From: Dehalococcoidia bacterium
GTDB taxonomy: Bacteria; Chloroflexota; Dehalococcoidia; Lucifugimonadales; UBA3495
Reading direction: 5' to 3'
Assembly (NCBI GenBank): GCA_963668505.2
Contig: CAXXWY010000022.1
Location: 86,613-150,612, forward strand
Length of the DNA stretch: 64,000 nucleotides
A model generated the notes under the pieces. The model searched no databases. It was not told where the DNA came from and saw only the letters and a program-made list of their open reading frames with translations. The position numbers were made by a program, and so were the translations under genes. Positions 30,059 to 52,747 of this stretch are shown here, piece by piece; positions within the stretch are counted from its first letter, which is position 1, and each line of letters opens with the position of its first letter.

Positions 30059-31263
30059 TGTATGTTGCAGATGTCCCCTGGATGGGTCAATCTGTGGGGG
30101 CATGGGTGAGGGGCGCGTCGACCGTCATTGGGCGGACGAGGCTGTTGCCCCGTGGCGCCGGGCCGGAGTATGACACCCCTCACCCTAACCGGAACCTCCG
30201 AACGGATACCGGGGTCATAGGACCCGCATCAGCAAGTGGGGAGGCCGGCGATGCAATCATACGGGAAGGGGAGGCGCCAATGGAAGAGGGAAAGGTAGCC
30301 GGTATAGACGTAGGCAAGGCCAGCTTGGATGTATGGGTTGGTTTCGGGGCCGGTGCAACGCTTCGACAACACTGAAGAAGGCATCACAGCCCTTAAGGAA
30401 TGGCTGGAAGGTCAGGGAGTGGAGTTGGCAGTGTGTGAACCCACCGGGGGATACGAGAGGCAGTTGGTCAAGGGGCTGAAAGAAGCCGGGTTGGGGGTTC
30501 ACCTGGCCCATCCCAACAGGGTGCGGGCCTTCGCCAAGGCTTGCGGGTATGAGGCCAAGACCGACGTCATAGACGCCCTGGTGCTGAGCCGGTTCGGGCA
30601 GGCCTTTGCGCTGGAGCAATCGCCCCAGAGGGAGATGGAGCCGGAACGGGCTGAGCTAAAGGAGTTGCTGCGGCGCCGGCGTCAGTTGGTCGAACAGCGG
30701 GTGCAGGAACTGAACCGGCTGGACAAGGGTCTGAGCGAGGCGGCCCGGGCCTCGACCCAAAGGCACATCCACTGGCTGGATGAGGAGATATCCCGGCTGG
30801 ATCGGGAGTACCAGAAGGCGCTGCAAAGCAGTCGGGAGCTGTCACAGCAGGCGGAGTTGTACCGCAGCGTAAGGGGCATCGGGGAACTCACCGCAGCGGT
30901 CCTGGTGGCGGACTTGCCGGAGTTGGGGCAAGGGGACGCTAAGGGGTTGGCTTCACTGGTGGGCCTAGCCCCCTGGTCCCGGGACAGCGGGCGGCAGCGG
31001 GGCTACCGGGCTATCAGGGGTGGGCGCGGGTCAGTGCGACGGGCCCTGTATCTGGCTGCCTTGGCGGCGGTCCGCCGCCAAGACAGCGCTATTGGACGCT
31101 TCTACCGCCAACTGCGCCAGCGAGGCAAGCCGGGCAAAGTAGCCATGGTGGCGGTGACGCGCAAACTGCTGCTGCAACTGCATGCGGTAGCCCGAAGGGG
31201 AACACCCTGGGTGGAGAACTATGCCCCAGCCGCCTAAACCCTTGACATTCAACACAGATACTC
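30059..31263 (+). mobile_element. IS110-family insertion sequence inserted in a REP hairpin (ends +/- 2 nt)
   Basis: Flanks aaccgtcatt (30049-30058) and ccggccccccgagccggaatc (31264-31284) join into a REP unit seen uninterrupted at 43164-43182 and, in related form, at 57717-57746 and 27801-27829. Confidence 0.7.
30280..31237 (+). pseudogene. IS110-family (DEDD) transposase with one apparent +1 frameshift
   Basis: MEEGKVAGIDVGKASLDVW (frame of ORF 30058..30375) continues as VSGPVQRFDNTEEGITALKEWL... (ORF 30329..31237); removing one G from TGGG at 30334-30337 restores the frame. Confidence 0.85.
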
Positions 31264-31453
31264 CGGCCCCCCGAGCCGGAATCTAGGGGGCGTGGGGCGG
31301 GATAGAAAATACCGTCCGTTCCCCCTGGTCATGTCACCTCGCCGCGACCCCGTTGCCCGCAGGGCGAAGACCCCCGCCTGCGCGGGGGTGACGGGTTCAG
31401 GGCTGGGGTTGCGACATTCCCGCCTACGGAGACACTTGCGCGGGTTCGGCGGT

Positions 31454-31910
31454 TCAGCCGCTGGAGGCCTTGCGCCACAGCCGGTAGCCGGTTGCCCCAC
31501 ATCACCAGCGGCAGCAGCGTGTCTACCACGGCCCAGATTACCCAGGCTTGATCGTTGTTATCCAGGCTGTCCCCGCCCAGGGCCAGCAGGGAAAACCAGT
31601 TGTGCAGGAACAGGATCGTCACGCCCGCGGTCAGATAGAAGGCTACCTTGGCTTCCAGGTGGGGGGCGTCCCGAGGCTCCGTCCGCCGCCTCCCGTTCCG
31701 ACTCCAGCTTACGGGCGAAATTGAACACCAGCGCCAGCCCCAGCGCTATGACCATCAACACGTCCAGCACGTACCAGACCTTCAGATCGTCGAAGCCCTC
31801 GCTGATGAACGGGTTGATGATGAAGTACGCCGCCCACCGCCGTTCCCACGCCTACCAGGTAAACCGCCGCCAATCTATTCAGCATTGCCGCCATAACCAT
31901 CCCTCCATAG
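31454..31910 (-). pseudogene. Small multi-TM membrane protein, about 3 frameshifts
   Basis: Hand translation joins fragments of ORFs 31709..31900, 31558..31770 and 31329..31622 (…AAYFIINPFISEGFDDLKVWYVLDVLMVIALGLALVFNF… / …KVAFYLTAGVTILFLHNWFSLLALGG…); RBS GGAGGG before ATG 31910. Confidence 0.35.
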
Positions 31911-31925
31911 TCTTGTTATGTTGCC

Positions 31926-33585
31926 AGCAGCCTTAGCGCGGTTTCCCGCGCCCCGTCCCAGTCGTCTACTATCTGGTCTTCCGGGACGCGCTTGAGGACG
32001 TTCAGCGCGTGCAGGCTGCGGGCGGGTATGCCCCGACAGTCCCATCACGATGCAGTGAGTGTCCTGGGTTACAGCCGCCTCCACCAGCCGCTCCACCACC
32101 AGCGCTGCGCTGTCGTCCACGTAGACCGTGTCGGAAAAGTCCAGGATAACCACCTCATGGTCCCGGATATCAGCCCCGATGGTGTCGATGAGCTTGCTGG
32201 ACGATGCCACGGTGAAGGTGCCCCTTCAGCGCCACCAGGCCGACCCTGGCGGAAAGCATGTCCGTCTCTTCCCCATTTATCTCTGGGCCGAAGAAAGTCC
32301 GGTCCAGCAGGGGCGTGGAGATAACGCTGTCCATCTCCAGGCGCTCGAACTGCCGTGCGCTGGTTACTGCGGCGGCAATCATCCCTACGGCCACGGCGGC
32401 CACCAGGTCCAGGAACACCGTCAGGCCCAAGGTCAGCAGCATCACCACCATGTGCTCGCGTTGAACGTGGTGGATGCGGGTCAAAAACCGCCAGTCTATC
32501 GTGTCTATCGCCACCTTCACCAGGATGCCGGCCAGCACCGCGTTGGGTATTTGCGCAACGAAGTCGCCCAGCGCCAGCACCAGCACCACCAGGATGGCTA
32601 CGGAAAACACCCCTGCGACAATGGTGCTGCCGCCCGCCCGGATGTTGGCTATGGTGCTGGGAGTGGCCCCTGAGCCGGGCAGGCCCCGGATAAACCCGGT
32701 GAACACGTTGCCGATGCCCTGGGCCAGCAACTCTTTGCTGGGGTCGTGGCGCGCCCGGGTCCATCGAGTCTCCCACCAGCGCCGTAAGCAGGGTGTCCAC
32801 GGATCCCACCAACGCAATGATCATGGCCGGCTCGATGGAGCGCACTATTACATTGGGGGAAATGTCAGGCAGGTGGAAGGAAGGCAGGGCGGTGGGCCAC
32901 CGCGCCGATGGCCGGCGCGTCGGTGAGCCACAGCACGCTCATGACGGTCCCGACGGCCAGCGCCACCAGTGTCGCCGGCAGGTACTTGTCGAATTTCGTG
33001 GGCCAAATCAGGGCGGCGGCAAGAGTCGCCGCGGCTATGGCCACGGCGTTGGTCTCGAAGTGCTCGACCACGTCCGAGAAGTTGCGCAGGGTGCCGATGG
33101 GTCCGCCGGCGGCGACGGGGGGCCCCCAGGAAGGGCAGAATCTGCACCAGTATGATTATCACTCCCACCCCGGACATGAACCCGGATATGACCGAGTAGG
33201 GGGTGTAGGTCACGTAGCGGCCGATTCTCAGCAGGCCGAACAGCATCTGCATCAGCCCGGCCATGATGACAATGGTGAATGCCTCGGCGATGTTGTCGGC
33301 GTGGCTGGCGACGATTACCGCCATGGCGACGGTCATCGAACCGGTCGGACCGGAAATGAGAGCGCGGGTGCCGCCGAACACCGCGGCGAAGAAACCCACG
33401 GAGATTGCGCCGTACATTCCCGCCGCCGGGCCTTCCTCCGGGCCGAAGACGGCCAATCCGAAAGCCAAGGCCACCGGCAGGCTCACCACCGCCGCCGTTA
33501 TCCCGCCGAGGATGTCCCCCCGCAGGGTTGCCAGATCGTATTGCGTATCGCCGAGGGAAAGGCGGCTCAGCAAGCGGAACCCCAA
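31926..33585 (-). pseudogene. SulP-family anion permease with C-terminal STAS domain, at least 5 frameshifts
   Basis: Colinear SulP segments spread over ORFs 32848..33585, 32865..33071, 32069..32845, 32170..32817 and 31875..32210 (…ISGPTGSMTVAM…, …GLPGSGATPSTIANIRAGG…, STAS: VVILDFSDTVYVDDSAALVV). Confidence 0.8.
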
Positions 33586-33918
33586 AGGCGGCAGCGGCTG
33601 TCATCGCCTGGAGAAACTAGAGGTCGCCGGCCCATGGTCTTTTCAAACATGTCCTAAGTCGTCTCGGTCCCACCACCGCTTCAACCCAATCTGACCAATG
33701 GGCGCGGCTGACGGGCCGCTGGGGCAACGCGCCTTGGCCGGATGCGCCTGCAACGCAACTGCTGCGGGCGGTGCGACCAACCGTCGGAGTCGCCTTCGGG
33801 AAAGACGTCCGCCCCCTGTCGGCGGGGCGGCGAGGCCGGTCACGGGCTATCTGCAATAATCCCCAAAAGCCTTGCCGTGAGCCAGTGGCTTTCCCGGCGA
33901 TAGCCCTTGGTCGAGGAT

Positions 33919-33995
33919 TGGTGGGCCCGGATAGACTCGAACTATCGACCTCGGTCTTATCAGGACCGCGCTCTAACCGCCTGAGCTACGGGCCC
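33919..33995 (-). tRNA. tRNA-Ile (anticodon GAU), CCA encoded
   Basis: Minus strand reads gggcccgtagctcaggcggttagagcgcggtcctGATaagaccgaggtcgatagttcgagtctatccgggcccacca; 7-bp acceptor stem, D, anticodon and T arms fold by eye; 77 nt. Confidence 0.9.
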
Positions 33996-34012
33996 ATGCT
34001 GCTGCCCGCGAG

Positions 34013-34041
34013 ATTATATCAATGCTCCGATAAGCGCACAA
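34013..34041 (-). promoter_or_regulatory. Sigma-70-like promoter for tRNA-Ile
   Basis: Minus strand TTGTGC (34036-34041), 17-nt spacer, TATAAT (34013-34018), 17 nt before the mature tRNA 5' end. Confidence 0.45.
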
Positions 34042-34126
34042 CCCGCCGCCCGTTCGTCCCCGTATCAGGTACGGGGCAAGCTCTGAGGCTCTCGCCCTTC
34101 GTCTGGCTCAGGGGACACGAACGGAG

Positions 34127-34378
34127 GCGGGGAAATTTTAGATACCGTCCCATTTCCTCCCATTCTCTCCCATTTTGCCCCCCGCCTCCGCGGGCGTGAC
34201 GCTGCCGGGGTTGGACCTTGTTCTGCCCCCGCCTCCGCGGGGGTGACGATGCCTGGGGCCCCTTCTCTTTCCCGGGGGCCGGACTGGGTTTTTGTGTGGC
34301 GGCTGGGCCGCGGTTGCCTGCTGTTATGGTAGGGCAGCGGGCGGGGGTTTGGGAAGGGGCAAGTTGTCAGTATCTGGG
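34127..34378. repeat. Left arm of an inverted-repeat pair (partner 43443..43655)
   Basis: 34298-34378 matches the reverse complement of 43443-43524 with about 4 mismatches in about 80 nt; 34127-34180 matches the reverse complement of 43598-43655. Confidence 0.8.
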
Positions 34379-34531
34379 GGGGCGTTCGGGCGGGGGTTGT
34401 CGAAGGGCCGGCGTGTCACCAACCCGTCGCCCGTTAGACCCCCGCCTGCGCGGGGGTGACGGTAGGGAGTGTGCGGGGGTGACGGTGCTGTTGAGCGAGT
34501 ACTGGCAAGGACGCGCTGCCGCGCCCGGAGG

Positions 34532-35020
34532 CTACTGGCCGTTGTTCCCGTTTTCCATCAGGCGCCGCAGGATTGTAGAGAGAGTTTGCATGGCGACCTG
34601 CATGGCCTGCTGGGACTCTTCGTGGCGCTGCTGGGACTCTTCGTGGCGCTGGAGGGACTCTTCGTGACGCTGTTGGGCTTCTTCGTGGCGCTGGAGGTCG
34701 GTCGTGTGCGCCTGTTGGATTTCGGCCAGACGTTCCACGACGGTGAACATCCGGTCCTGTATATCGACCAGCCGGTTGATGGCCTCTTTGTTCTCTTGGA
34801 TGTCGGCGGCTTGGTCCCGTTGAAGCGCCTGAAGCATCTCCAGCATCACATCGTGCTTCAGGGCGGCGGCTTTCAGTTCCCGCTGTGTCTCCGCCTGCTG
34901 CTGCTGGATCTCTTTCAGTTCCCGCTGGGTTTCGGCCATTTCCCGCTGCGTCGCCTCCATGCTTAGGATGGCGTCTTCCAGGCGGTCGTGGCGGGCGTTG
35001 TGGTCGTTGTTGGTGGACAT
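34532..35020 (-). CDS. Coiled-coil protein of unknown function (copy 1)
   Basis: 162 aa from ATG 35020 (MSTNNDHNARHDRLED...); heptad-like Q/E/R-rich sequence with 7-aa QRHEES(L/Q) repeats; no known motif. Confidence 0.5.
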   Translation of the reverse strand: MSTNNDHNARHDRLEDAILSMEATQREMAETQRELKEIQQQQAETQRELKAAALKHDVMLEMLQALQRDQAADIQENKEAINRLVDIQDRMFTVVERLAEIQQAHTTDLQRHEEAQQRHEESLQRHEESQQRHEESQQAMQVAMQTLSTILRRLMENGNNGQ

Positions 35021-35130
35021 GGGGTGTCTCTCTTGATGGTAGTGTAGGCGATGGCGGTTGGGGTTTGCAAGCGGGCCGGTTGCGCCCCCAACCCGCCGCC
35101 CGTTCGCCCAACCCGTCATTCCCGCGCAGG

Positions 35131-35528
35131 GAGACCTTTGCGTAAACTCCCTCTCCCTTGATGGGAGAGGGGTTGGGGTGAGGGAGAGCTAAGAAACCAG
35201 TCCACCGATGCGGAGCGACTTCTCTGGTCGAGACTTCGCGATCGGAGGCTGCTGGGCCTTAAGTTCAGGAGGCAATCCCCTATCGGAAGATACATCGTCG
35301 ATTTCGTTTGTCCAGAGAAGAGACTCGTCATAGAGATCGATGGGGACCACCACCAGGAACAACGAACGCCCGACGCATCCAGGACGGCATGGCTAAGCTC
35401 CCTTGGATTCAGAGTGATTCGGTATTGGAACAATGAAGTACTGGAGTCGATTCGGATGACGTTGGACGGCGAAACGGCGCCCTCACCCCAACCCTCTCCC
35501 TTCAAGGGAGAGGGGGTTTTGCAAAGGT
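35131..35528 (+). mobile_element. ~400-bp TIR-bounded element carrying only a DUF559 ORF, flanked by a 10-bp duplication (copy 1)
   Basis: Ends gagACCTTTGCgtaaactCCCTCTCCC / GGGAGAGGGggttttGCAAAGGT; CCCGCGCAGG at 35121-35130 and 35529-35538; unoccupied site at 43894-43931. Confidence 0.65.
35161..35475 (+). pseudogene. DUF559 (Vsr-like/PD-(D/E)XK) endonuclease-domain ORF, copy 1, start out of frame
   Basis: ...[85 protein letters not shown]; relative to copy 2 an extra G (GGGG at 35169-35172) puts ATG 35161 out of frame. Confidence 0.6.
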
Positions 35529-35667
35529 CCCGCGCAGGCGGGAATCTCGCGCCTTGGGGCCGCGGGCCGTTAGACCCCCGCCTGCGCGGGGGTGACGGTA
35601 GGGAGTGTGCGGGGGTGACGGTGCTGTTGAGCGAGTACTGGCAAGGACGCGCTGCCGCGCCCGGAGG

Positions 35668-36156
35668 CTACTGGCCGTTGTTCCCGTTTTCCATCAGGCG
35701 CCGCAGGATTGTAGAGAGAGTTTGCATGGCGACCTGCATGGCCTGCTGGGACTCTTCGTGGCGCTGGAGGGACTCTTGGTGGCGCTGGAGGGACTCTTCG
35801 TGACGCTGTTGGGCTTCTTCGTGGCGCTGGAGGTCGGTCGTGTGCGCCTGTTGGATTTCGGCCAGACGTTCCACGACGGTGAACATCCGGTCCTGTATAT
35901 CGACCAGCCGGTTGATGGCCTCTATGTTCTCTTGGATGTCGGCGGCATGGTCCCGTTGAAGCGCCTGAAGCATCTCCAGCATCACATCGTGCTTTAGGGC
36001 GGCGGCTTTCAGTTCCCGCTGTGTCTCCGCCTGCTGCTGCTGGATCTCTTTCAGTTCCCGCTGGGTTTCGGCCATTTCCCGCTGCGTCGCCTCCATGCTT
36101 AGGATGGCGTCTTCCAGGCGGTCGTGGCGGGCGTTGTGGTCGTTGTTGGTGGACAT
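35668..36156 (-). CDS. Coiled-coil protein of unknown function (copy 2)
   Basis: Same as copy 1 with a few substitutions (RDHAADIQENIEAINR; HQESLQRHEESQQ); ATG at 36156. Confidence 0.5.
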   Translation of the reverse strand: MSTNNDHNARHDRLEDAILSMEATQREMAETQRELKEIQQQQAETQRELKAAALKHDVMLEMLQALQRDHAADIQENIEAINRLVDIQDRMFTVVERLAEIQQAHTTDLQRHEEAQQRHEESLQRHQESLQRHEESQQAMQVAMQTLSTILRRLMENGNNGQ

Positions 36157-36266
36157 GGGGTGTCTCTCTTGATGGTAGTGTAGGCGATGGCGGTTGGGGT
36201 TTGCAAGCGGGCCGGTTGCGCCCCCAACCCGCCGCCCGTTCGCCCAACCCGTCATTCCCGCGCAGG

Positions 36267-36691
36267 GAGACCTTTGCGTAACTCCCTCTCCCTTGATGGG
36301 AGAGGGTTGGGGTGAGGGAGAGCTAAGAAACCAGTCCACCGATGCGGAGCGACTTCTCTGGTCGAGACTTCGCGATCGGAGGCTGCTGGGCCTTAAGTTC
36401 AGGAGGCAATCCCCTATCGGAAGATACATCGTCGATTTCGTTTGTCCAGAGAAGAGACTCGTCATAGAGGTCGATGGGGCCACCACCAGAAACAACGAAC
36501 GCCCGACGCATCCAGGACGGCATGGCTAAGCTCCCTTGGATTCAGAGTGATTCGGTATTGGAACAATGAAGTACTGGAGTCGATTCGGATGACGTTGGAC
36601 GGCGAAACGGCACCCTCACCCCAACCCTCTCCCATCACGGCACCCTCACCCCAACCCTCTCCCTTCAAGGGAGAGGGGGTTTTGCAAAGGT
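36267..36691 (+). mobile_element. DUF559 TIR element (copy 2, part of the tandem duplication)
   Basis: Same termini and CCCGCGCAGG flanks (36257-36266, 36692-36701); carries a 30-bp internal tandem duplication at 36608-36667. Confidence 0.6.
36296..36605 (+). pseudogene. DUF559 endonuclease-domain ORF, copy 2, internal frameshift
   Basis: ATG 36296 ([22 protein letters not shown]...VIEVDG) then frame change at the G-run near 36476-36480; continues as [33 protein letters not shown] in ORF 36442..36777. Confidence 0.6.
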
Positions 36692-36731
36692 CCCGCGCAG
36701 GCGGGAATCTCGCGCCTTGGGGCCGCGGGCT

Positions 36732-37356
36732 GTTAGACCCCCGCCTTCGCGGGGGTGACGGTGGTAGTGTGCCGTGAGTGACGGTGGTAATGTGCCGGGG
36801 GTGACGTGCCCCCCCCCACCCGCTCACCCTGAGCTTGTCGAAGGGCTGTTGCGCCTCCAACTCGTCGCCCGTTCGTGTCCTTCGAGAGCCTCAGGACGAA
36901 CGGGCTGGCCCTCCGCCTCCGCGGGGGTGACGGTGGTGTTGCGCGGGGGTGACGGGTGGGGGAGTATTGTCATTCCGAGCGGAGCCGAGGAATCCCCCCC
37001 GGACGTGCAACCATCCTTGGCGGCCGAGATTCTTCGTCGCAGGCTCCTCAGAATGACAGGGGGGCAGGCTGGTGTCCCCGGCCCACCCGCTCTCCCTGAG
37101 CTTGTCGAAGGGCTGTTGCGCCTCCAACTCGTCGCCCGGCCGTGTCCTTCGAGAGCCTCAGAGCTTGCCCCGTACCTGATACGGGGACGAACGGGCTGGC
37201 ACTCTCCTAATGCTGCAACTCCGGGAGGCCGTATTCCCAGGCATGGTCCCGGTAATGCGGCAACTCCGGAAGGCCGTACTCCCGGGCATGGTCTTGGTGA
37301 TGACGGAGAATCAGGACGCCTACTCCGCCCATTCTCCGGTCACAACTGCACGCACG
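36732..37356. repeat. Array of GC-rich REP/MITE-like palindromic elements (several families)
   Basis: cccccgc-N4-gcggggg hairpins; two units cccacccgctc(a/t)ccctgagcttgtcgaagggctg... (36815-36912, 37083-37200); 91-bp palindromic element tgtcattccgag...ctcagaatgaca at 36968-37058. Confidence 0.8.
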
Positions 37357-40300
37357 CTACTGGATTCGGTGCCAGCCGCTCCAGGAGCCCCAGATGACGT
37401 TGAACGCCCGCACCCGGAAGAAGGTGCCGTGGTTCGAGAAGTTCCTGCAATGCTGATTGCCGCCCACGTACTTGCTGGTCGTTGTGCTCTCGCCCGCGCT
37501 GCTGGTGTTGATCGACCGCTTACACTCTATCCCGTACTTGCTGATCCCGGTATGGCCGGTGCCCGTGTTGCTGGGCGCTGTCCAGCTTGCATTCCAGTTG
37601 CTCGTGTTGATGCTAAGGCCCGTCGGCGTGCCCGGCGCTTGGAGCGCGGCTAGCGACGACGACTGCGCCCACGCGCTGGCCGCGTTGCCGCTGCCCGTGG
37701 CGCGCAGGCGAATGACGTAGGCGTTGCCCTTGTCCAGCCCGGTGACGCTGTGGCTGGTGGCCGACGATCCTATCGTGCCGCCGCAGGCCGACCATGTGGA
37801 GCCGCTGTCGGTGCTGCACTCCGCCGCGTAGCCCGTGCGCCCCGTGCTCGACGACGGCGCAGGCCAAGAGAGCGCGACGCTGTCGCTGTTGGCCGTCGCG
37901 CTGTAGGTGCGCGTCGCGGAGAGGCCCGTGGGCGGGCTGAGCGGCGTGTGTGAACGCCGCCGACGCTATCTCCGTCGCGCAGGCGGAGTCGCTGTACGCC
38001 CTGAAGGTGTAGTCCGTGTTGACCGCCAGGCTGCTCAGCGCATGGGAGTAGTCCGACTCGCCCGCCGTGCACGTTCCGGTGTTCGGCGAGGTCTCCTTCA
38101 GCCACCAGCCGCCCGCCTTGCCCGTCAGCGTCAGCGTGGCGGTCGTGCTGGTGACGTCGCTCACCACGAGCGACTGCCCCGGCGGCACCGCCGCCACCTC
38201 GAGCTTCAGCGGCACGCCGCTGTTGTCCCAGACGTTTCCGGGGCGATGCCTGCCGTTGTCCGCAAGCGACCAGCCGTTGGCCGAGGGGACCCTCGTCTCG
38301 CCGGTCGAGCCCGTCCTGGCGATGTCGTAGTAGTTGGAGCCGCCGGGGGCGTTGGGCGCGCTCAGCCAGATGTAGTAGGTCGTGTTCCTCGACAACGAGC
38401 AGTTGTTTGTGCTGCTGGGCGTGCAGGCGTAAGTGTAGTTCCCGTTCCCGGTGGGGTCGCTGCCGCTCAGCGTGGCCAGCGCCGGTCCGATGTTCACCCC
38501 CGAAGCCGAGTGCAGCTTCACCGTGAACTCGCCCGGGCTGCCCGTCTTCCCGTTGACGCGGATGGTGATGCTCGACAGCGTGTAGCCGCTCGTGTTCGAG
38601 CCGGTGGTGAAGCCTTGCGCCGCGACCGAGCCCTGCTGGTAATGGCCGACTTTGTAGGAGCCCGACCCCGTCGCGCCTATGTTGCTCACCGTCACCGCCG
38701 TTGTGAACGTCACGCTGCGGAGCGCCGTCGTGCAGGTGGCGTCGCCGTACGCCGCGTAGGCGTAAGTACTGCCCGCCGTGAGGCTGCTCAGCGCGTGGGA
38801 GAAGTCGGCCTCGCCCGCCTCGCAGGTCCCGGCGGGCGCGGGCGATGTCCGCTTCAGCCACCAACTGCCCGTGTGCCCCGTCAGCGTCAGCGTCGCCGTG
38901 GTCGTGTGGATGCCGCTCACGGCGATCCAGTTCGCCTCCGTGGTGAACGACGTCCTGCCGATAACCGTCGTGCAGGACGAATCGCTGTACGCCTCGTAGG
39001 TGTACGCCGTGCCGCGATTGAGGTTCGATAGGTCAAGGGCGGCGCCGTAGCCCACGCCGGACGAGCACGTCCCGCCGCTGGGCGTCGTGTACTTCGCGTA
39101 CCAGTTGCCCGTGCCGCTGCCGGAGAGCGTGAGCGTCGCCGTCGTGTCCGTGACGCTGCTCGCCGTCATCGTGCGCAGCGTGGTGAACGTCCCGCTGGCG
39201 ACCACCTGCTTGCAGGCGGAATCCCGGTAAGCCGCGTAGGTGTACCCCGTGTTCTGTTGCAGGCCCGTGAGGGCGAGCGTCGAGCCATTGGCAATGGCGG
39301 ACGAGCACGCCCCGCCGGCGGGGGTGATCCGCTTCGTGTGCCAGGCGCTCTCGCCGCCCTCGTTGGCCAGCGTCAGCGTTGCCGTCGACGTGGCGATGTC
39401 GCTGGCGGTGAGCGACGGCGCGTCATGGCCGTACTCCACGCTGAACATGACCGCGCGCACCAGGCGCGTCCACGTCGAGCCGCCGTCGTCCGTGTGCCGG
39501 ATCTCGTTGGCGATGCTGAACCCGCTGTCGGCGGGCGACGCCGTCTCGTTGTTCGTGCCCGACCGCTGCCAGTAGTAGGCCCGCCCCGTGGTGCCGCTGC
39601 AGTCCTGCACTCCCTCGACGGTGCGGCATTGCGGCACGGGGACGCTGAGCACGACGTAGTAGGTCTCGCCGGAGTCAAGGGCGCAGCCGTCGCCGGAGCA
39701 GGTGTATATCCCTTGGGAGTTCTCCGGCGGCCGCGCCGGGCCGCTGAGCGCGGCGTTGGCAATCGCCGTCCCAGGGTTGCCGTCGCTCCCCGCGCTGAAG
39801 AGACGCACGTTCAGGTCATACTCGGGGGCCGGCATTCCGATGCCGCTGTCCCCGAACAGGAGCGTTACGCGATTGAGGGTGAAGCTGTCCGCGCCCGTTC
39901 CCGTGGTGAAGGAGCTCGCCGTCCAGTCGTTGGCCGACCAGCCCACGGGCATGGTGGAGCCTACCTGCCGCTGGCCCAGGTTGCTCACGCTCGCCTTTGC
40001 GGTCGTGAACGTCACGTCCGTGTCGAATGCCGGGGAGCAGGGCGCGGCCTCAGTGGACATGTACGCCTTGAAGGTGTATTCCGTGCCGGGTGTGAGGCCG
40101 GTGACGGGCGCGCTCGCGACCCCTTGGCTGCCGAAGCCGTCGAAGTGGCCCACGCAGGCGGCGCCGGTCTCGGTCGATTTGTACCCCCAGGTGCTGTTGG
40201 ACCCCACGTTGTAGGCGAGGAAGGTCGCGGTCGTCGCGGTCACGTTCTCGACACCTCCCCTGGACGAGGATGCGGGGAAGAGGTGCTTGCTCGCGATTGC

Positions 40301-42817
40301 GTCCGCGGCGTCGCAGCCGTCCTTGCTGTACGCCTCGAAGGCGTACTGGTTCCTGTTGGTGTGGTCGAAGGTGAAGCCGGTCAGCGTCACCGACGAGGTC
40401 CCTTCAGCGACGGACGTGCAGGTCCCGGCGGTGGGGGCGGTCTGCTGGTACCACCACGCCGCCGTCGTCGTCCCATCCGCCTTCGTCCAGTTGACGATGT
40501 TGATCGTCAAGGTGTCCGCGCTCGTGTCCGCGCTGCCGTCCAGGCGGACGGTCTTGAAGGAGACGGCTCCGACCGCGGCGGCGCAGCCGGAATCGACGTA
40601 TGCGGTGTAGGTGTAGCTCTCCCCCGGGGTCAGGCTGAGCGCCACGCTCTTCTGCCCGTAGCCCACGGCATAGCAGGTGTCGTCGCCGCTGGGCGCGGTG
40701 CGCTTGTACCACCAGTTGGTCAGCAGGCCGGAGCCCTCGATGACGAGCGTCGCCGAGTTGTCCGTGACCCCGTCCGCGCGCAGCCCGTACAGCGTTGTGA
40801 AGGTGGCCGTGGTGACGGCGTCGCCGAGGCACTGCCGGTTGTCGTAGGCGGCGTAGGTGTAGGCCCGCCCCGGCAGCAAGCCGGTGATGTTCACCGATGC
40901 GCCGCCCGCCGACGTGCAGAGGCTGTCGTTGGGCGAGGTCTGCGCGTACCACCAGTCGCCTGTGGACGTAACTGTGAGCGTCGCCCCCTCTGTCGTCTCG
41001 GCGCTGGCGCTCATCTGGACCGCTGCGTTGGCGTTGGCCGCGACGATGCTCACCATGCCGACCCTGTCCGACTGCCAGCGGAGCTGACCATTGTTGTTCG
41101 TTAGACCGCTGTTGGCGATGGACCAGCCGTTGCCGGCGGGAGTGTTGACCTCGCTGCCCGAGTTCGTCGTCCGCAGCCTATGGCCCTGGATGCTGACCCC
41201 CCCGGCTGCGGTGCTCATGACGATGAAGTAGGTGGTGTTGGGGTCGAGCGCACAGTCCGTCCCGGAGCAGTTCCAGGTGTTATTGGCGCCGGTGCCCGGT
41301 TGGCCGGGGCCGTCGCTCAGCGTGACCTTGGCCGTCGCCGCGGGGTGGTTCGAGTTGTTGGCGTCCGGCGCGTGGATGGCCACCACGATGTCCGGAGGAT
41401 TGCTTTGTTTCTGGTGGAAGAAACCGCTGACGCTGCTGAGGGTGTAGCCGCCAAGCCTGCCGCCCGTGGTGAAGGCGACGGCGCACTTGGAGCCGCCGGT
41501 GCGGTCGCCCACCGAGCAGGTGTAGTTCCACTGCTGGCCGATGTTGCTGACGGAGACGTTGCCGGGGGACAGGTTGGCCTGGGTCTGCGCCGTTGCCGAG
41601 GCGATCTCCGCGCCGCCGCACTGGCCGTTGCCGTAGGCGGTGATGGTGTAGCCGGTGTCCGAGTCGAGGCCGGTAACCGTCGCCTCCGAGCCGTTGACCG
41701 GCCCGGTGCAGGTCACGGACTGGGCGGATGCGATGCCCGCGCCGCCTGTGTTCGCCCCGCCGCCGGAGGTCTGGCTGGTGGTGTAGTACCACTCGCCGCT
41801 GTAGTTGTCCATGGTGAGAGTGGCGCCGGTCGGCGTCGGGTCGGTGACGGTCAGCGTGGGCGGCGGCGTGTACGGCCCGATGGACGGCGAGTTGCGCCAG
41901 TTGCTGCCGCCGGCGCTGTTCTTGGCGCGCACACCGACGATGTAGGTGGAGTCGTTGTCAGCGTCGATTTCGATGCTAGTCTCGGCGTGATCGAGGGCGG
42001 CGAGCTGCCAGCTCTGCGCGCCGTCGTCGGTGTAGGTGACGTGGTAGCCGGTCGCGCCGCTCGGAGCATCCCAAGACGCCGTCAGCGTCCCGTCGGAGCG
42101 GGTTACGGTGACGGATGCGACCGCGCCGGGCGGCGTGGGCCCGGGCGTGTAGGGACCGACAGCGGGCGAGTTGACCCAGTTGCTGCCGCCGCTGCTGTTC
42201 TTGGCTCGCACGCCGACGATGTAGGTCTTGGCGTTGTCCGCGCTGAACGTGATGCTCGTTCCGGTGTGGCTGAGGGCGGCGAGTTGCCAGCTCTGCGCGC
42301 CGTCGTCGGTGTAGGTTACGTGGTAGCTGGTCGCGCCCGCGGGGGCTGTCCAGCTTGCGGCGAGTGAGCCGTCGGCGCGGGTTACGGTGACGGATGCGAC
42401 CGCATCGGGCGGGGTTGGCGTAGGCGTGGGCGTGTACGGGCCGCTGGACGGCGAGTTGACCCAGCCGCTTCCGCCGTTGTCGTTCTTGGCGCGTACGCCG
42501 ACGATGTAGGTCTTGGCGTTGTCGGCGGAGATGGCGATGCTGTTCGAGGCGTGGGCCAGGGCGGCCAAGTCCCAGCTTGCGCCGCCGGTGGAGCTATAGG
42601 TTACGTGGTAGGAGGTTGCGCCGCTGGGGGCGTCCCAGGTTGCGGTGAGTTGGCCGTCGGAGCGGGTGACGTTTACTGAGGACACCGCATCGGGAGCGTC
42701 CAGCGAACCCTGGGCCGAGGCGGTGGCGGCCCAAGCCGATGCGGCGACTACGGCCGCCAGCAATGCCGCAAACAGCCAGATGGATGGAGATTGTGAAAGT
42801 CTATGCCGTATACCCAT
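37357..42817 (-). CDS. Giant secreted protein (~1,820 aa) made of FN3-like and other beta-sandwich repeats; one apparent frameshift near 37945
   Basis: Track ORF 37613..42817 (signal peptide AASAWAATASAQG; three FN3-like units ...TATWDAPSGATSYHVTY...; many TTG..GYTLSS modules). Its last ~110 aa are low-complexity Arg/Gln-rich sequence unlike the rest of the protein. Hand translation of the frame starting at 37944 gives two more FN3-like units (PLSPPTGLSATRTYSATANSDSVALSW...RLRATGSGNAASAW...; ...NASWTAPSNTG...FFRVRAFN) ending at TAG 37357-37359. Confidence 0.75.
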
Positions 42818-42972
42818 GCCAGGCCCCCGGTCGCTATCTCGTTAAGATAACTTCTTGCTGATATTCAGAAGTGATTTACAGGATATTTTTATTAAGAACT
42901 GATTGACACTGATTCATCGGGGTATTTCATCAGGATATGCTGCTTAAATCAGCGTGACGTTGCCTGCGAGAG

Positions 42973-43001
42973 ATTGTATAGCCTTTTGCCGAGATTTACA
43001 A
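42973..43001 (-). promoter_or_regulatory. Candidate sigma-70-like promoter of the giant gene
   Basis: Minus strand TTGTAA (42996-43001), 17 nt, TACAAT (42973-42978); about 150-nt AT-rich leader to ATG 42817. Confidence 0.35.
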
Positions 43002-43980
43002 TCAAAGCGGGCCGGGGGTTTGAGATTCCTCGGCTACCCCTCGGAATGACAATACTCCACCACCGTCACCCCCGCGCACCCTACCGTCACCCCTGCGGAG
43101 GCGGGGGTCTAACGCCCGACGGCTCCCAGGGCGCGAGATTCCCGCCTGCGGAGACCTTTGCGTAACCGTCATTCCGGCCCCCACTGTCATTCTGAGGAGC
43201 CTGCGACGAAGAATCTTGGCCGCCGGGGGATGGTTGCGCGTCCGGGGGGAGATTCCTCGGCTACGCTCGGAATGACATGGTTGGGGCGCGGGGCGGCCCT
43301 TCGACAAGCTCAGGGAGAGCGGAGGTCCCGTTCGTGGTGAGGCCAAGCGCGCCAGCCCGTTCGTGGTGAGCCTGTCCTGAGCTCGTCGAAGGGGCCTGTC
43401 GAACCAAACCGAACGGGCGGCGGGTTGGAGGCGCAACAGCCGCCCCAGCTACTGACAACTTGCCCCTTCCCAAACCCCCGCCCGCTGTCTTACCATAACA
43501 ACAGGCAACCGCGGCCCAGCCGCCGCCCCCAAAAAACCAATCGGCCACTGAGGCCCCAGGCACCCGATGTCAGAACAGAGTCAAACCCCGGCCCACCCGC
43601 CAAAATGGGAGAGAATGGGAGGAAATGGGAGGGGATCTAAAATTTTCCCCGCCCCAGATTCCTCGGCTGTGCTCGGAATGAAAGTGGGCCTGGTAGCCCG
43701 TTCGTGGTGAGCGTGGGGAGCGCCAGCCCGTTCGTGGTGAGCCTGTCGAACCAAACCGAACGGGCGACGGGTTGGAGGCGCGGCAGCCCTTCGACAAGCT
43801 CAGGGAGAGCGGGGGTGGGGGGTTACACGTCACCCCCGCACATTGCCACCGTCACCCCCGCGGAGGCGGGGGTCTAACGGGCGGCGGCTCCCAGGCGCGA
43901 GATTCCCGCCTGCGCGGGAATGACGGGTTGGGGGGAGGGATAAGTCAGATGGGAGCAGGGCTAAGCCGGTTGGGGCTGGG
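43002..43980. repeat. Array of REP/MITE-like elements, largely the same families as 36732-37356 but in opposite orientation
   Basis: 93-bp element at 43185-43277 is the reverse complement of 36968-37058; cagcccttcgacaagctcagggagagcgg units at 43283-43440 and 43690-43815; intact REP hairpin gagattcccgcctgcgcgggaatgac at 43899-43924. Confidence 0.8.
43443..43655. repeat. Right arm of the inverted-repeat pair (partner 34127..34378)
   Basis: See left arm; contains AATGGGA x3 at 43604, 43614 and 43624. Confidence 0.8.
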
Positions 43981-45190
43981 CTAGGTCGGTTGGGGGCCGA
44001 TTACGCCCCTCTGTCTCAAGTCGGCAATTTGGGCCTGGCTGTAGCCGGATTCGGCGAGTATCTCTTCGTTGTGCTCGCCCAGGCAGGGGCGGGTAGCGCC
44101 GGACGGATGGCGGAGTGGCGGTCAGCTTCAGAGGAGACCCGGGGACCTTTAGGCCGGGGGACTTCCGGATGGGGGGCTTCCACCACCATGTTCCGGTGCT
44201 GCACCTGGTGGGTCGCCAATCACCTGGGAGACGCTGTTGATGGGTCCGCAGGGCACCCCGGCATCGGAAATCAATCTTACCCAGTGGGCCACCGGCTTCT
44301 CCCGGAACACCTGGCTAAGGGCCTCCACGCATTCGACGCGGTGGGTCACGCGGTCGGTGTTGGTGACGAACCTGGGGTCGTCGATAAATTCAGGCCGTCC
44401 AATAACCCGGCACATACGTTCCCACAAGCCTTGGTTGCCGCATCCCAGGATGAAAAAGCCATCGGAGGCCGGGAAGCTCTGGTAAGGCGTCAAGCTGGGG
44501 TGGGCGGAACCCATGCGCTGGGGGTCCTTGCCGTCGGCCAAGTAAGCGGTGCCATGGTAGCTCATGGCCGCCACCTGGCCGTCCAGTAGGGAAGTGTCAA
44601 TCCACTGTCCCTCGCCAGTCCGTTCGCGGTGGGTAGAGGGCGGTCATGATGCTGCCGTAGGCCAGCATGCCGGTGAAGAGGTCCACCATCGAGAACCCCA
44701 CTCTCACCGGCGGGCCGTCGGGTTCTCCGGTCAGGTACATCAACCCGCTGTAGGCTTGGATTATCAGGTCATAGCCCGGCTTATCGGCCATGGGGCCGGT
44801 GCGGCCGTAGCCCGAGATAGAGCAATAGACGATTCCGGGGTTTACTTTTCGCACCGCTTCGTAACCCAAGCCCATGCGGTCCAATGCGCCGGTGCGAAAG
44901 CTCTCTATCATGACGTCGGCCTTGGCCGCCAAGCCCAGCACCAAGTCTACGCCTTCCTTTTCCTTGAGATTTACCGACAGGCTGCGCTTGCTGCGGTTGA
45001 AGGAAGCGAACTGGGTGCTGAGGTTGTCCCAGAAGGGGACCCAATGGCGGGTCTCGTCTCCCAGCGACGGCTCTTCGACCTTGACCACTTCGGCCCCCAT
45101 GTCACCCATCATCTGGGTGCAAAAAGGCCCGGCGAGAGTGCGAGTCAGGTCCACCACCTTGACGTTTTCAAGCGCCGAAGCCATCGTCAC
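43981..45190 (-). pseudogene. Family-III CoA-transferase (CaiB/BaiF-like), at least 4 frameshifts
   Basis: ORF 44597..45190 (VKVVDLTRTLAGPFCTQMMGDMGAEVVKVEEP), ORF 44149..44574, ORF 44016..44219 and two further hand-translated frames (…HRERTGEGQWIDTSLLDGQVAAM…, …EHNEEILAESGYSQAQIADLRQRGVI*) are colinear pieces of one gene. Confidence 0.8.
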
Positions 45191-49324: not shown

Positions 49325-49354
49325 ATTGTAGGGTGCGGTCGAAGACATTGTCAA
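49325..49354 (-). promoter_or_regulatory. Near-consensus sigma-70-like promoter for the HMGL-like gene
   Basis: Minus strand TTGACA (49349-49354), 18 nt, TACAAT (49325-49330); about 90 nt upstream of ATG 49230. Confidence 0.4.
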
Positions 49355-49390
49355 GAAATTTGGCGGCCCGGCGAGGGGCGTTGCGAGAGG

Positions 49391-49435
49391 GCGGCAAATT
49401 TTTAGTTCCCCTTCCATTATCTCCCATTTGGCGGG
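49391..49435. repeat. Third copy of the phased TCCCATT-type motif block
   Basis: gcggcaaatttttagttccccTTCCATTatcTCCCATTtggcggg resembles 34127-34180; a degenerate second copy follows at 49450-49498. Confidence 0.55.
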
Positions 49436-49790
49436 AGTGAGGCCCCGTTGGGAAATTTTCATTTTCTGGGCCATATTGAGCCATTTGGCGACATTCCCTA
49501 GCTGAGAGACACTGGCAGGCGGTGCAGCAATATCTCGATGTTTGTAGCTGGGGCATCCAGAATGTCCCATGAAGGGGCTGAATACGGCGGAAATTGGCGC
49601 AGACGGTTCGCGCCGCCTCGGGGCGGAAGGCTGCGCCGCGGGCAGTCGGCTTGGTGACAACATGGTTTGAGTTTAGGCATTGGGGTTGGGGCGCGTCAAT
49701 GGGGTTTTGTCAGTAGGGGGTGGGGTGTTGGGGGGCAAGGCGGCAACGCCCCTGGGACAAGCCGTCGCCTTCTAGGGGGTATCACAATAG

Positions 49791-50967
49791 TCACAGTGCC
49801 TTTTTGACCATGTCGACATCAATCGTCCCACCCGGCTTTAGGGCACCCGAAAGCACTGACTTCTCCAAGACTCTCCGACACGCTCTGAACAATTCCGACG
49901 AGGTCTTGATCTGTGTCCCCTCTGCGATGGCAAACAGGGCGTTTCCTTCGAAAGGATACTCATCTGGGTCCTCTGCATCATAACGATAGCCCTTCAAAAC
50001 CTGCCTGAGGAACTCCACCGCCTCGTCTGAGGTGAGCGGCTCTATTTCTAGTGGCTCGCGAGACATTCGCCTGATGACGGCTTGGGTTAGCAGTCCGTAT
50101 ATGCTCCTTACATCCCCAGTCATCCCGAAAATGAAACAGCAATTCTCTGGACAAGCGTTGATGAGATCACGGATGCCTTGGTTCATACTCAAAGCTTCCT
50201 GTGGCCGAAAGTCATTTGCGATCTCAAGCTCATCAAAGAAAAAATAGGAACGCTCTGTTGCGTCCGATGACATCCCCCTCACTAAGAATACTAGTACCCC
50301 TCGTGCACAAGTTAACGTATGCACCCAGACACCTGGTTGCATCGTATTCAGATTCGATTGCACTAGTCATGTTGTACTTGGCGTATTTGCTCATCGCACC
50401 CGCCCCGGGAAGCTTCCCGCCGAGTAGGAGCGCGAGTGCTTCGCTAGATTCGCCCTTGATGCCTCTCAAGAGAAGTCCAAGCGGAGGATAGCTTGGCGTC
50501 AGCCCAGGATCATTGTAGATTCCGTCCATGGCTTTTTGCTGTTCTTGTAAAGTGCCATTCGGGTTCTGTCTCTTAGCAGTTTCTTCAACAGCAAGATCAA
50601 GCCACTCAGAGGTTTCCTTTATGTGGGGCACCAAGAGATCCATGATCTTGTTGTATAGGGCAACAAAGTTCATGTTTGCGGCGACTTTCAAAGTCTCAAG
50701 GTAGACACAAGGCGAAGCAAATTCCTCTTTTCGTTCCTCTGTAATCAAATAGCTGAGGTATCTGAGAGCATGAGATTTGCCAGTCCCCAGTTCGCCGTGA
50801 AGTATTGCAAACTCCGACAGACCGACTTGATCTGATCTACACGATTGCACTATGTCCAAAAGTTGCGACCTAAGCTGGCTATATCCTGCCCAAATCGTAA
50901 CTTTCTCACCCGGAACCAAAGTGAACGGGTTATTGGTTAACTTCGCAATCTCCAGGGTAGTATTCAT
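49791..50967 (-). pseudogene. ORC/Cdc6-like AAA+ P-loop ATPase (island gene 5) with one frame disruption
   Basis: ORF 50233..50967 (NPFTLVPG...FAILHGELGTGKSHALRYL, Walker A) and ORF 49791..50363 (SYFFFDELE Walker B, ...CCFIFGMTGD...) overlap; frames rejoin at either the A6 run 50239-50244 or the C5 run 50274-50278. Confidence 0.7.
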
Positions 50968-51558
50968 CTACTGTGCCCCCTTCGCGTCTGCGATCGCAGA
51001 ACGATTGTTTGAAGCCCAGGTGGCAAAGGTCTGGGTGCCGGGATTGCCGATTAGGTCAGTTTCAATGAGTTTCGCTGTGGATGAGTACACGAGTCGATCC
51101 CCGGTCAACAAGGCCAACTCAAGAAGAGCCGGTGCGGTTGAACTCTTAGTGCCAAAGCCTCTGCTTGTGAGATTCGGTGATCCAACGATTACCATCTCTG
51201 AATCGTGGCTATCCTGGAATAGATATGCCTTAGCATGAAGATCAGGGTGGAGATAGACCTCGGCCCCCTTTTGGTCCAAATCCTCCAGCAATTGTAATTT
51301 CATTCTAAAGCGTTGATTCTTGCCACTACTTCCTGGGGGAGGCGTTGTCATTACAGTTATTTTTGCCCCGTAAGCAAGTTGTCTGACAAGCAAATCAGAC
51401 AGAACCCCATTTCCCCAGAAATCATAGTCTTGCATGTTGAAGGAAATAATTGTCGCCTTGGTCAAGAGTCTAAACGCCCCTATCCACTGGAGAACCTCTT
51501 GGGCTACATCGTCTCCTAGGGCAGGGATGACAACTGGCGTGTTGCTCTGGGCTTGCAT
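50968..51558 (-). CDS. Single-HKD phospholipase-D-family nuclease (island gene 4)
   Basis: 196-aa ORF; LHPDLHAKAYLFQDSHDSEMVIVGSPNLTSRG matches the HxK...GSxN PLD/Nuc signature; its stop abuts the next start (TAG-ATG at 50968/50967). Confidence 0.75.
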   Translation of the reverse strand: MQAQSNTPVVIPALGDDVAQEVLQWIGAFRLLTKATIISFNMQDYDFWGNGVLSDLLVRQLAYGAKITVMTTPPPGSSGKNQRFRMKLQLLEDLDQKGAEVYLHPDLHAKAYLFQDSHDSEMVIVGSPNLTSRGFGTKSSTAPALLELALLTGDRLVYSSTAKLIETDLIGNPGTQTFATWASNNRSAIADAKGAQ

Positions 51559-51567
51559 CGCAGCAAT

Positions 51568-52743
51568 CTACGGGACAAAGCCCTTCATGGCAATGTAGCC
51601 ACTGCGGCCGTGCCTTTGACGCATCCTATATATCTTATCTGGAAACTCTTGGAATGTAGATTCCATAAGATCACTGAATGAACTCCGGTCGAGATACTTA
51701 CCGTCAGCCGCTAGTTGGGCGGCCATTGCATCATATATGGATTCGATGGCCGCCTCATTGAAAACATGGAATTTTACATGAGGGTAAATCGCCTCGATAA
51801 ATCGAAAGTACTCGTCAAGCGATAAATGAGCTGGCGATGCTGACCCTAGGAATGATGATGATATCGCCTGCCAACACAAGTCCTTCGGGTCGTCTGAAGG
51901 CGCAAGGCCGAGCAATTGGGTGACTTCGGCGGAAAAGGGCAGGACAAGTGCTGATCCTGAACAGCAGCCCTCCTCCTTGAATGCCGACAATAGCCGGCGT
52001 CCTGACTCAGTTACGCGATAATCTTCCCCACTCTGTTGCCGAATGTAGCCGAGATCCTTCAGCCACCCTCTTCTAGGATTTACGGTGTGTGAATAAAACC
52101 TCTCTACCTTCTGCTCTGGGGTGAAGCTTCGGTCTTCCCTGTAGGCCGACCAAGACTGGGTCTGTTTGCGGTCCATGTCCACAGCGGTCGTAAGCCGCCG
52201 CTTTGAATCGGAAAGTTCCTGCAAGATGATATCCCTGACCAACTTCGATTCGATATTTTGGTTTGCCCAAGACTCGCGAAGCGTCAAGATGCTCAGTAAA
52301 CGGCCTACTAGCAGTTCACCGAGTGAAGTTGATATGTCGGCATTGGCGAGGATGTCAAGAAGGTTTAGAGTTGCTTCTCCATCGGATTCGAGCACCGCAT
52401 GCAACAGCAACGCCCCGATAGATTCATTAGAGGCATTTGTCTGCTGAATGGCGTACAGCGCGTACCCTTTGTCCGATAGCATAAGTTTGTTCCCGGCTTT
52501 ATGAAGGAATCCAAGAGCTCTACCGACGTCAATAACCCCGTCAGCGTATTTAGGCCCGTTTACGGCTTCCCGTTCTAGTATCACAGAGCGAAGAGAGGTA
52601 ACGGAAGCAGGTCCAATATTGTGAAGATAGGTCACCAGTCTGGCGAATCGAAAGATGTCGTGCAAGCCGTTGGTGTAACCGATCCTGCGAGAAAGTTCCC
52701 CCCTGACTCGAGCACGCTGCTGAACTAACCCAAGCATAGCCAT
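51568..52743 (-). CDS. Hypothetical protein, 391 aa (island gene 3)
   Basis: Intact ORF, 4-nt gap from the upstream gene and 9-nt gap to the downstream gene; no catalytic motif recognised; possible winged-helix-like segments. Confidence 0.6.
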   Translation of the reverse strand: MAMLGLVQQRARVRGELSRRIGYTNGLHDIFRFARLVTYLHNIGPASVTSLRSVILEREAVNGPKYADGVIDVGRALGFLHKAGNKLMLSDKGYALYAIQQTNASNESIGALLLHAVLESDGEATLNLLDILANADISTSLGELLVGRLLSILTLRESWANQNIESKLVRDIILQELSDSKRRLTTAVDMDRKQTQSWSAYREDRSFTPEQKVERFYSHTVNPRRGWLKDLGYIRQQSGEDYRVTESGRRLLSAFKEEGCCSGSALVLPFSAEVTQLLGLAPSDDPKDLCWQAISSSFLGSASPAHLSLDEYFRFIEAIYPHVKFHVFNEAAIESIYDAMAAQLAADGKYLDRSSFSDLMESTFQEFPDKIYRMRQRHGRSGYIAMKGFVP

Positions 52744-52747
52744 GAGC

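Follow-up and report, generated by a model that had tools for sequence, protein, structure and literature searches.

Outward-facing copies of a promoter-like module family as probable markers of accessory DNA edges in sponge-associated Dehalococcoidia

The inverted arms that bracket a 9.5-kb segment beside tRNA-Ile(GAU) in a Dehalococcoidia bacterium (contig CAXXWY010000022.1; the 64-kb stretch analysed is called the window) are diverged copies of a lineage-specific, non-coding module family. Members of the family have a common anatomy, follow an orientation rule and, at one locus, differ in presence between relatives together with variable cargo. The favoured reading, to which we give a probability of roughly 60%, takes both arms as outward-facing members of a promoter-like family of modules not described before; in sponge-associated Dehalococcoidia this family would mark where accessory DNA, docked upstream of core promoters, has its edges. 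The segment has the look of an inverted repeat because its two modules face outward.

Self-comparison for inverted repeats (a find-repeat scan, global alignment and BLAST of 33-45 kb against 10 shuffles) yields two inverted blocks, I1 (34289-34383 against 43439-43533, 95 nt, 91%) and I8 (34129-34177 against 43601-43649, 49 nt, 94%). They are colinear, and alignment merges both into a single arm pair, 34122-34383 (262 nt) against the reverse complement of 43439-43660 (222 nt), with 182 matches, 34 mismatches and 52 gap columns, so that the aligned columns are 84% identical. The three longest stretches of exact match measure 38, 30 and 23 nt, and the gaps consist of two insertions of repetitive extragenic palindromic (REP) units and a 12-nt indel, all in the left arm. 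The best inverted match within 33-45 kb scores 196 bits, where the shuffles give 0-31 bits. The inverted arms that an earlier note had placed beside tRNA-Ile are thus borne out as a colinear pair and are not mere scattered short REP matches; the left arm lies 127-132 nt from the tRNA 5' end, in agreement with the about 130 bp given there. Embedded REP units aside, no full-length arm matches are found elsewhere in the window.

Could the arms be an assembly artefact? Sponge-metagenome runs contain the window's organism, in public data at about 3-8x and as short, Illumina-derived Logan contigs. The left arm is recovered in a contig of run X1 (34108-34304, 0 mismatches) and the right arm, together with its inner flank, in a contig of run X2 (43362-43649, 94%, from a related strain). 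The arms are not an artefact, since independent Illumina-derived contigs of two sponge metagenomes carry both. Strand-switch joints are absent among the short contigs placed on each arm.

A profile of the copies, run with nhmmer over 1.78 Mb of related Dehalococcoidia DNA, matches the window at 34100-34395, 43425-43687 and 49341-49738, and relatives at L082 5431-5825, L002 7642-7953 and L081 20078-20286; no full copies appear beyond these six loci. A 42-nt mini-copy at the abhydrolase junction of L082 (1160-1201) brings the family to seven. Read in the proposed functional direction, a module of about 150-400 bp starts at a conserved end, TACTGACA (TACTGWCA), followed after 8-9 nt by a -35/-10-like pair with a 17-18-nt spacer. 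The variable stretch that comes next, 90-260 nt and often invaded by REP units, leads to a box in which two or three AATGGGAG heptamers are spaced by exactly 10 bp and which ends in GGGRAWCTAAAAWTTT; after the heptamer box, module copies continue with CTAAAATTT. Other contigs of the sponge runs match the box alone, and further copies therefore exist outside the DNA examined. In exact-pattern scans the arm core is unmatched in genome contigs, and neither the box nor the core end is matched in metagenome contigs.

The hexamer pair holds a fixed position in six copies; the arms' version falls below the threshold of a generic scan. The L082 copy, assigned by eye, shares the layout with CACTGACA. 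Across the full copies the -35-like hexamers are TTCCCA, TTGCCA, TTGACG and TTGCCT and the -10-like hexamers TACCAT, TAAACT and TACCCT. The copies at the HMGL-like gene (TTGACG/TAAACT) differ from the arms (TTCCCA/TACCAT) in both hexamers but not in spacing, and since hexamers vary between subfamilies while spacing is kept, the pattern would be that expected of a maintained promoter. TACTGWCA, 8-9 nt, TTSMCN, 17-18 nt and TAMMMT in that order have five matches across all the DNA examined, all of them family copies. The box head with a TTGTCAGT motif within 400 nt likewise falls at family members in five of five matches, and nowhere else. The IS110 element of the window has no similarity to the module.

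A structured RNA was considered and rejected: in either direction the arms fold no better than shuffles (z between -2.7 and +1.3), and the one small hairpin is kept by one-sided changes only. In four copies the box can also be read as an 11-codon open reading frame (ORF) that ends at the TAA of CTAAAA: window 43605-43640 (+) and 34129-34173 (-), L082 5725-5760 and L081 about 20205-20240. The peptide variants are MGENGRKWEGI, MGENGRKWDGI, MGGNERKWEGN and VGGNGGKWKGN. No Shine-Dalgarno sequence precedes this reading frame, and its conservation is probably a by-product of the DNA repeat.

Where do the modules point? Six of the seven copies are directed into the 5' end of the next gene, and these genes are non-homologous: tRNA-Ile, the HMGL-like gene, a T-box ilvB operon, an abhydrolase gene and an unknown ORF. 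For the left arm the target is the promoter of tRNA-Ile. The HMGL copies of the window and L082 read into the HMGL promoter, which in the window (TTGACA-18-TACAAT, 49354-49325) follows the box of copy 3. The L002 copy lies 283 nt from the L002 tRNA-Ile and faces the opposite way, into the promoter of a T-box-led ilvB-ilvC-leuA operon. The L082 mini-copy reads into the abhydrolase gene. The L081 copy stands at the end of a BREX-type defence cluster, its box followed by a ribosome-binding site and, 30 nt on, by the ATG of the next gene, and appears to be the sole promoter of that gene. What the right arm faces is a REP mosaic and, convergent with it, the CoA-transferase gene by its 3' end; no tRNA or Rfam match lies downstream of it, and an Rfam search of 30-48 kb gives no match besides the tRNA of the window. 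The T-box leader of L002 (7357-7604 (-), Rfam RF00230, 111 bits) precedes an ilvB-(188-aa ORF)-ilvC-leuA-type operon, not a tRNA synthetase gene, and this operon is divergent from tRNA-Ile.

The HMGL locus offers filled and empty states of one site. In L081 the divergent abhydrolase and HMGL promoters adjoin back to back, their -35 boxes only about 14 nt apart, and L081 positions 4762 and 4774 correspond by BLAST to window positions 56613 and 49358, the borders of a 7.25-kb insertion. L082 carries at the same site about 4.7 kb, in which the same module is accompanied by DarT, Macro and two unknown genes. The cargos of the window and L082 differ, the modules are 91% identical, and similarity stops exactly at the TACTGACA end. 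In L083 module and cargo are both absent and the HMGL promoter is kept, as in L081. The L082 cargo is bracketed by the mini-module and the full module, inverted and with box ends outward, like the 9.5-kb segment. The docking point falls between the -35 boxes of the abhydrolase (TTGACG-17/18-CATACT) and HMGL (TTGACA-18-TACAAT) promoters, at L081 4755-4782 and at window 49349-49354 and about 56600-56625; it is very precise and promoter-proximal.

At the 9.5-kb segment the relatives tell a less simple story. With the frame-corrected SulP permease beside the tRNA as query, 80 loci were obtained, all from metagenome-assembled genomes of uncultured Dehalococcoidia. Synteny is kept in L001 and L002 for the left block, which begins with tRNA-Ile, SulP and a periplasmic binding protein, and in L081, L082 and L083 for the right block, which extends from CoA-transferase and NUDIX as far as the HMGL-like gene. 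On the left, homology to relatives breaks off at 34028, inside the tRNA promoter, past its -10 and short of its -35 region; on the right it resumes (L081, L082) at 43968-43982, where the CoA-transferase gene has its 3' end. Each arm has its breakpoint (34028, 43968) within 100-310 nt. The tRNA promoter, TGATATAAT, falls within a block (33918-34028) that is 94% identical to L002, where other genes stand upstream of tRNA-Ile. In relatives, luciferase-like and DLH genes follow the CoA-transferase gene, and the window has neither. The 9.9 kb between the blocks is, on sequence comparison, lineage-specific, and a rearrangement junction and a simple insertion are equally possible as its origin.

Does the tRNA explain the position of the segment? 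The segment lies on the 5' side of tRNA-Ile, upstream of the tRNA promoter, and this position excludes classical tRNA integration. BLAST finds no partial tRNA copy in the window, the chance matches being 11 nt or shorter. A Pfam scan of all ORFs of at least 80 aa in 33.8-44.6 kb finds no integrase, invertase or recombinase domain in the segment, where only fn3 and DUF559 reach the cut-off; the nearest mobile-element gene is an IS110 transposase (30329-31237) within its own insertion sequence. The absence of an integrase had been stated in the earlier note and holds. Its suggestion that the architecture delimits a composite island which entered next to the tRNA survives in part: homology does stop near the arms, L081 is an empty site at the HMGL locus and the bracketed cargo of L082 gives the idea of island ends its strongest support, but neither simple insertion nor targeting to the tRNA can be upheld. 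A false lead is thereby removed, in that the segment is neither an island at a tRNA attachment site nor a demonstrated inversion switch; its inverted look is a by-product of outward-facing modules. A direct repeat of the 3' part of a tRNA is a signature of site-specific integration. Such an arrangement is seen in L002 (8212-9512), where an intact tRNA-Ile(GAU) is followed by a 1.15-kb insert with a single ORF, a 71-nt copy of tRNA positions 7-77 and then SulP.

Under the favoured reading, a module would act as an outward-reading promoter or leader, or as an upstream control module, at the outer edge of accessory DNA docked directly upstream of core-gene promoters. The left arm would serve, or at least face, tRNA-Ile. 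The right arm would be an orphan whose downstream partner is missing, at the place where relatives have the luciferase-like/DLH operon. The cargo between the TACTGACA ends of the arms comprises the duplicated coiled-coil/DUF559 cassette, the REP mosaics and the giant gene with its fn3 domain. We infer that modules either travel with cargo or attract it. If the reading is true, it would explain how defence operons and giant adhesin-like genes are still shuffled between strains of streamlined, integrase-poor symbionts. Variable cargo would dock beside a control module that can be reused, reads outward and is set directly upstream of core promoters. The reading also yields a practical marker, TACTGACA ... 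AATGGGAG x3 ... CTAAAATTT, for places where conserved DNA gives way to variable DNA in uncultured Dehalococcoidia.

A number of observations weigh against this reading. The right arm has no downstream gene. The -35 hexamer of the arms, TTCCCA, is weak and is not called by a generic sigma-70 scan, and the module promoter as a whole is a motif, with an activity presumed from its letters. tRNA-Ile and the HMGL-like gene have good promoters of their own downstream of the box, and the module is therefore not needed for their expression. The left and right flanking blocks are adjacent in none of L001, L002 and L081-L083, and a single-insertion origin of the segment is accordingly unproven. No target-site duplication is present at the arms, whose outer flanks differ (GACACGAACGGA against CCAGATTCC), and no clear one at the L082, window or L081 junctions. 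A module has no terminal inverted repeats, its ends TACTGACA... and ...CTAAAATTTCCCC not being inverted copies of each other, and none of the three cargos (the 9.5-kb segment, the window defence insertion and that of L082) encodes a transposase or recombinase. The abhydrolase end of the window defence insertion has no convincing second module, and L002 has a solo module with no cargo. Mobility is suggested by presence and absence alone.

Might the arms instead be the terminal inverted repeats of a non-autonomous composite element, like a composite transposon flanked by MITEs (miniature inverted-repeat transposable elements)? The heptamers would then be subterminal sites for an enzyme encoded elsewhere, and the whole 9.5-kb unit would have moved or be able to move. 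The layout fits, since in this segment and at the L082 cargo alike the boxes face out and the TACTGACA ends face in, as do the empty HMGL site of L081 and the occurrence of the same end module on different cargos. The heptamers, three in number at 10-bp phase and some 30-75 nt away from the junction, might also be likened to the multi-site ends of transposons such as Tn7 and Mu. We nevertheless regard a composite element as unlikely: besides the missing target-site duplications, the transposase-free cargos, the single convincing module at the window's defence insertion, the non-contiguous flanks of the segment, the lack of inverted termini inside a module and the solo copy of L002, the arms are merely 84% identical, with indels.

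A more elaborate proposal, tentative and in our estimate rather improbable, makes the module the recognition end of an undescribed trans-acting cargo-exchange system in sponge-associated Dehalococcoidia. An enzyme encoded elsewhere would recognise the phased heptamers by binding and would add or exchange promoter-less cassettes at the TACTGACA end, immediately upstream of strong core-gene promoters, while the outward promoter would keep the neighbour expressed; the 9.5-kb segment would be a cargo bay with both ends intact. Candidate cassettes would be defence operons, toxin-antitoxin pairs and giant surface proteins.

The arms might, alternatively, be ordinary upstream regulatory regions, i.e. 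an array of operators used by one transcription factor, belonging to a divergent promoter pair that unrelated insertions split later, their pairing and their link to accessory DNA being coincidental. Genes with the box (ilvB-leuA operon, HMGL-like gene, tRNA-Ile) would form a regulon that might concern branched-chain amino acids. The 10-bp-phased heptamers about 45-110 nt upstream of the HMGL and tRNA-Ile -35 boxes, the loosely shared theme of the downstream genes and the solo L002 copy with no cargo agree with this. L081 and L083, however, lack module and cargo together at a conserved HMGL promoter; in L081 the box is part of a 5' leader, only 30 nt ahead of a start codon; the conserved block of about 150-400 nt, which includes a promoter-like pair, far exceeds an operator; and one copy has no gene. 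A regulon is for these reasons distinctly unlikely.

Least probable is a phase-variation switch, a form of the inversion that the earlier note took the architecture to permit, in which the arms recombine, homologously or site-specifically, and the giant gene and cassettes are flipped: inverted repeats of about 220-260 nt with such exact runs are long enough in principle for rare RecA-type exchange, and inversion is physically possible, but active inversion is without any support, as actively recombining inverted repeats stay near-identical and the arms have diverged, with indels, no invertase or recombinase gene is adjacent, a flip would leave the facing of promoter and gene unchanged because the AT-rich promoter of the giant gene is inside the segment, the single X2 contig over inner flank, core and arm-specific middle (43362-43649) has the reference orientation, and family members elsewhere are single.

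The contents of the segment (Table 1) agree with the earlier note in that repeats, ORFs and Pfam confirm a tandem cassette and a giant secreted-protein gene between the arms; the 3' end of the latter may extend further through a frame break. The mirror-image REP mosaics reported on either side of the giant gene exist (I2, I4, I13, I19, I23), the left mosaic having mirror copies of units at 43179-43277 and 43717-43919, but their order is not colinear with the arms: on the left it is arm, M1, M2 and on the right, read in reverse, M1, arm, M2. A single large inverted duplication was rejected on this difference in order, and the mirror mosaics are REP clusters, not part of such a duplication. The REP CCCCCGCNNNCGCGGGGGTGACG has eight of its nine copies in the window, and the type GTCATTCCGAG...GAGGAATC six of its seven, within 34029-37200 and 43002-43967.

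Is the giant gene a partner of the modules? This was rejected, as homologues of the protein (74-79% amino-acid identity; L085, L086) are found in unrelated contexts with no modules. The coiled-coil cassette occurs in this context in none of 86 related loci. Coiled-coil homologues (53% identity) also form a tandem pair in a sponge-metagenome contig, in an unrelated context (L084 10001-11026). The giant and coiled-coil proteins of the window have no entry in the contig index, and neither has P0121, the closest coiled-coil relative (86%). The CoA-transferase gene is the first gene of the conserved right-hand block, with orthologues at 84-92% and synteny kept in L081-L083.

Table 1. Coordinates of the arms, the segment between them and the HMGL-locus insertion in the window
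Feature	Position	Strand	Basis and remarks
tRNA-Ile(GAU)	33919-33995	-	ARAGORN; Rfam RF00005, 68 bits; 5' end faces left arm
tRNA-Ile's own extended -10 promoter TGATATAAT	34016-34024	-	motif only, by sequence
Left arm (module copy 1)	34122-34383	-	repeats, alignment, profile
Left arm, three-heptamer box	34177-34129	-	sequence; directed into tRNA-Ile promoter
Left arm, REP insertions in variable stretch	about 34179-34201 and 34226-34248		alignment
Left arm, -10-like TACCAT	34331-34326	-	motif
Left arm, -35-like TTCCCA	34355-34350	-	motif; 18-nt spacer follows
Left arm, TACTGACA	34372-34365	-	sequence
Tandem 1136-bp cassette	34424-35559 and 35560-36692		97-100% identity; direct repeats D2, D4, D6, D13
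Cassette, 162-aa coiled-coil ORFs	34532-35022; 35668-36158	-	translation
Cassette, DUF559 endonuclease-like ORFs	about 35162-35480; about 36296-36640 (frame-broken)	+	Pfam 1e-37 and 1e-22
REP mosaic left of giant gene	36691-37200		inverted repeats I2, I4, I13, I14, I19, I23
1734-aa secreted repeat protein (giant gene)	37613-42817	-	Pfam fn3 1.8e-15
Giant-gene promoter-like site TTGTAA-17-TACAAT	42973-43001	-	consensus scan only; AT-rich upstream stretch
REP mosaic between giant-gene promoter and right arm	43002-43438		repeats, REP counts
Right arm (module copy 2)	43439-43660	+	repeats, alignment, profile
Right arm, TACTGACA	43450-43457	+	sequence
Right arm, -35-like TTCCCA	43467-43472	+	motif; 18-nt spacer follows
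Right arm, -10-like TACCAT	43491-43496	+	motif
Right arm, three-heptamer box	43601-43649	+	sequence
REP mosaic outside right arm	43661-43967		sequence
CoA-transferase family III gene	43990-45190	-	Pfam 5e-75; frame-broken in window assembly
Module copy 3	49340-49738	-	profile, BLAST; 91% identical to L082 5439-5822
Copy 3, two-heptamer box	49435-49389	-	sequence
Copy 3, -10-like TAAACT	49675-49670	-	motif; about 260 nt variable sequence follows
Copy 3, -35-like TTGACG	49699-49694	-	motif; 18-nt spacer follows
Copy 3, TACTGACA	49715-49708	-	sequence
7.25-kb insertion relative to L081 empty site	49359-56612		module copy 3 and five-gene low-GC defence operon; BLAST

The Illumina-derived contigs (X1, X2) have 0 mismatches to the window and single-base indels at 30342, 32031, 34178, 45594 and 45781. 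Frame-broken genes include SulP (31450-33585, at least five frame changes) and CoA-transferase (43990-45190, at least three), and at a minimum the SulP break near 32031 coincides with a contig indel. Because of these indels, the clustered 'pseudogenes' of 30-48 kb are probably, at least in part, long-read assembly errors and not decay. The IS110-family element (30059-31267) is polymorphic: an X2 contig joins 30058 to 31268, skipping 1209 bp, with CCGG at the junction of the empty site and at least 98% likeness, in a co-occurring strain.

How do the modules compare with known systems? Site-specific invertible segments of the Hin/Gin and fimS type are likewise flanked by inverted repeats and contain a surface or secreted-protein gene, but the repeats here are long and diverged, no recombinase gene is present, the promoter is inside the segment and the one cross-arm contig has the reference orientation. 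As in tRNA-targeting islands, accessory DNA adjoins tRNA-Ile(GAU); the segment, however, is on the 5' side of the tRNA and has neither a tRNA-fragment repeat nor an integrase, while in L002 an insert does separate the tRNA from a repeat of the tRNA 3' part. REP units surround the arms and break them up, which recalls clusters of REP and bacterial interspersed mosaic elements, but the arm sequence proper is no REP; those parts of it that lie outside REP units are found just twice in the window, and 1.78 Mb contain 7 copies of the family.

Parallels are also found among mobile non-coding elements. The Correia elements of Neisseria are promoter-bearing dispersed repeats. Putative mobile promoters and promoter reuse are known in prokaryotes (PMC3575422), and the modules are like these in being similar non-coding upstream sequences with a -35/-10-like pair before unrelated genes, present or absent between close relatives (window and L082 against L081 and L083). 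They differ in being long (150-400 bp) and ending in a phased three-heptamer box, in preferring the edges of variable cargo, where they can form outward-facing inverted pairs, and in showing no insertion sequence association or target duplication. In Acinetobacter a pair of 439-bp MITEs surrounds a Tn402-like integron (PMC3934969). Here too, two copies of one non-coding element bracket cargo that has no transposase of its own, with L082 as a second instance, and one instance has an empty site (L081 against L082 and the window). The modules differ in having no terminal inverted repeats or target-site duplication, and their copies are diverged (84%) and of unequal length, one instance having a single clear copy. 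Although they depart from MITE-flanked composites (PMC3934969) in the features that define these, the module pairs resemble both such composites and mobile promoters (PMC3575422).

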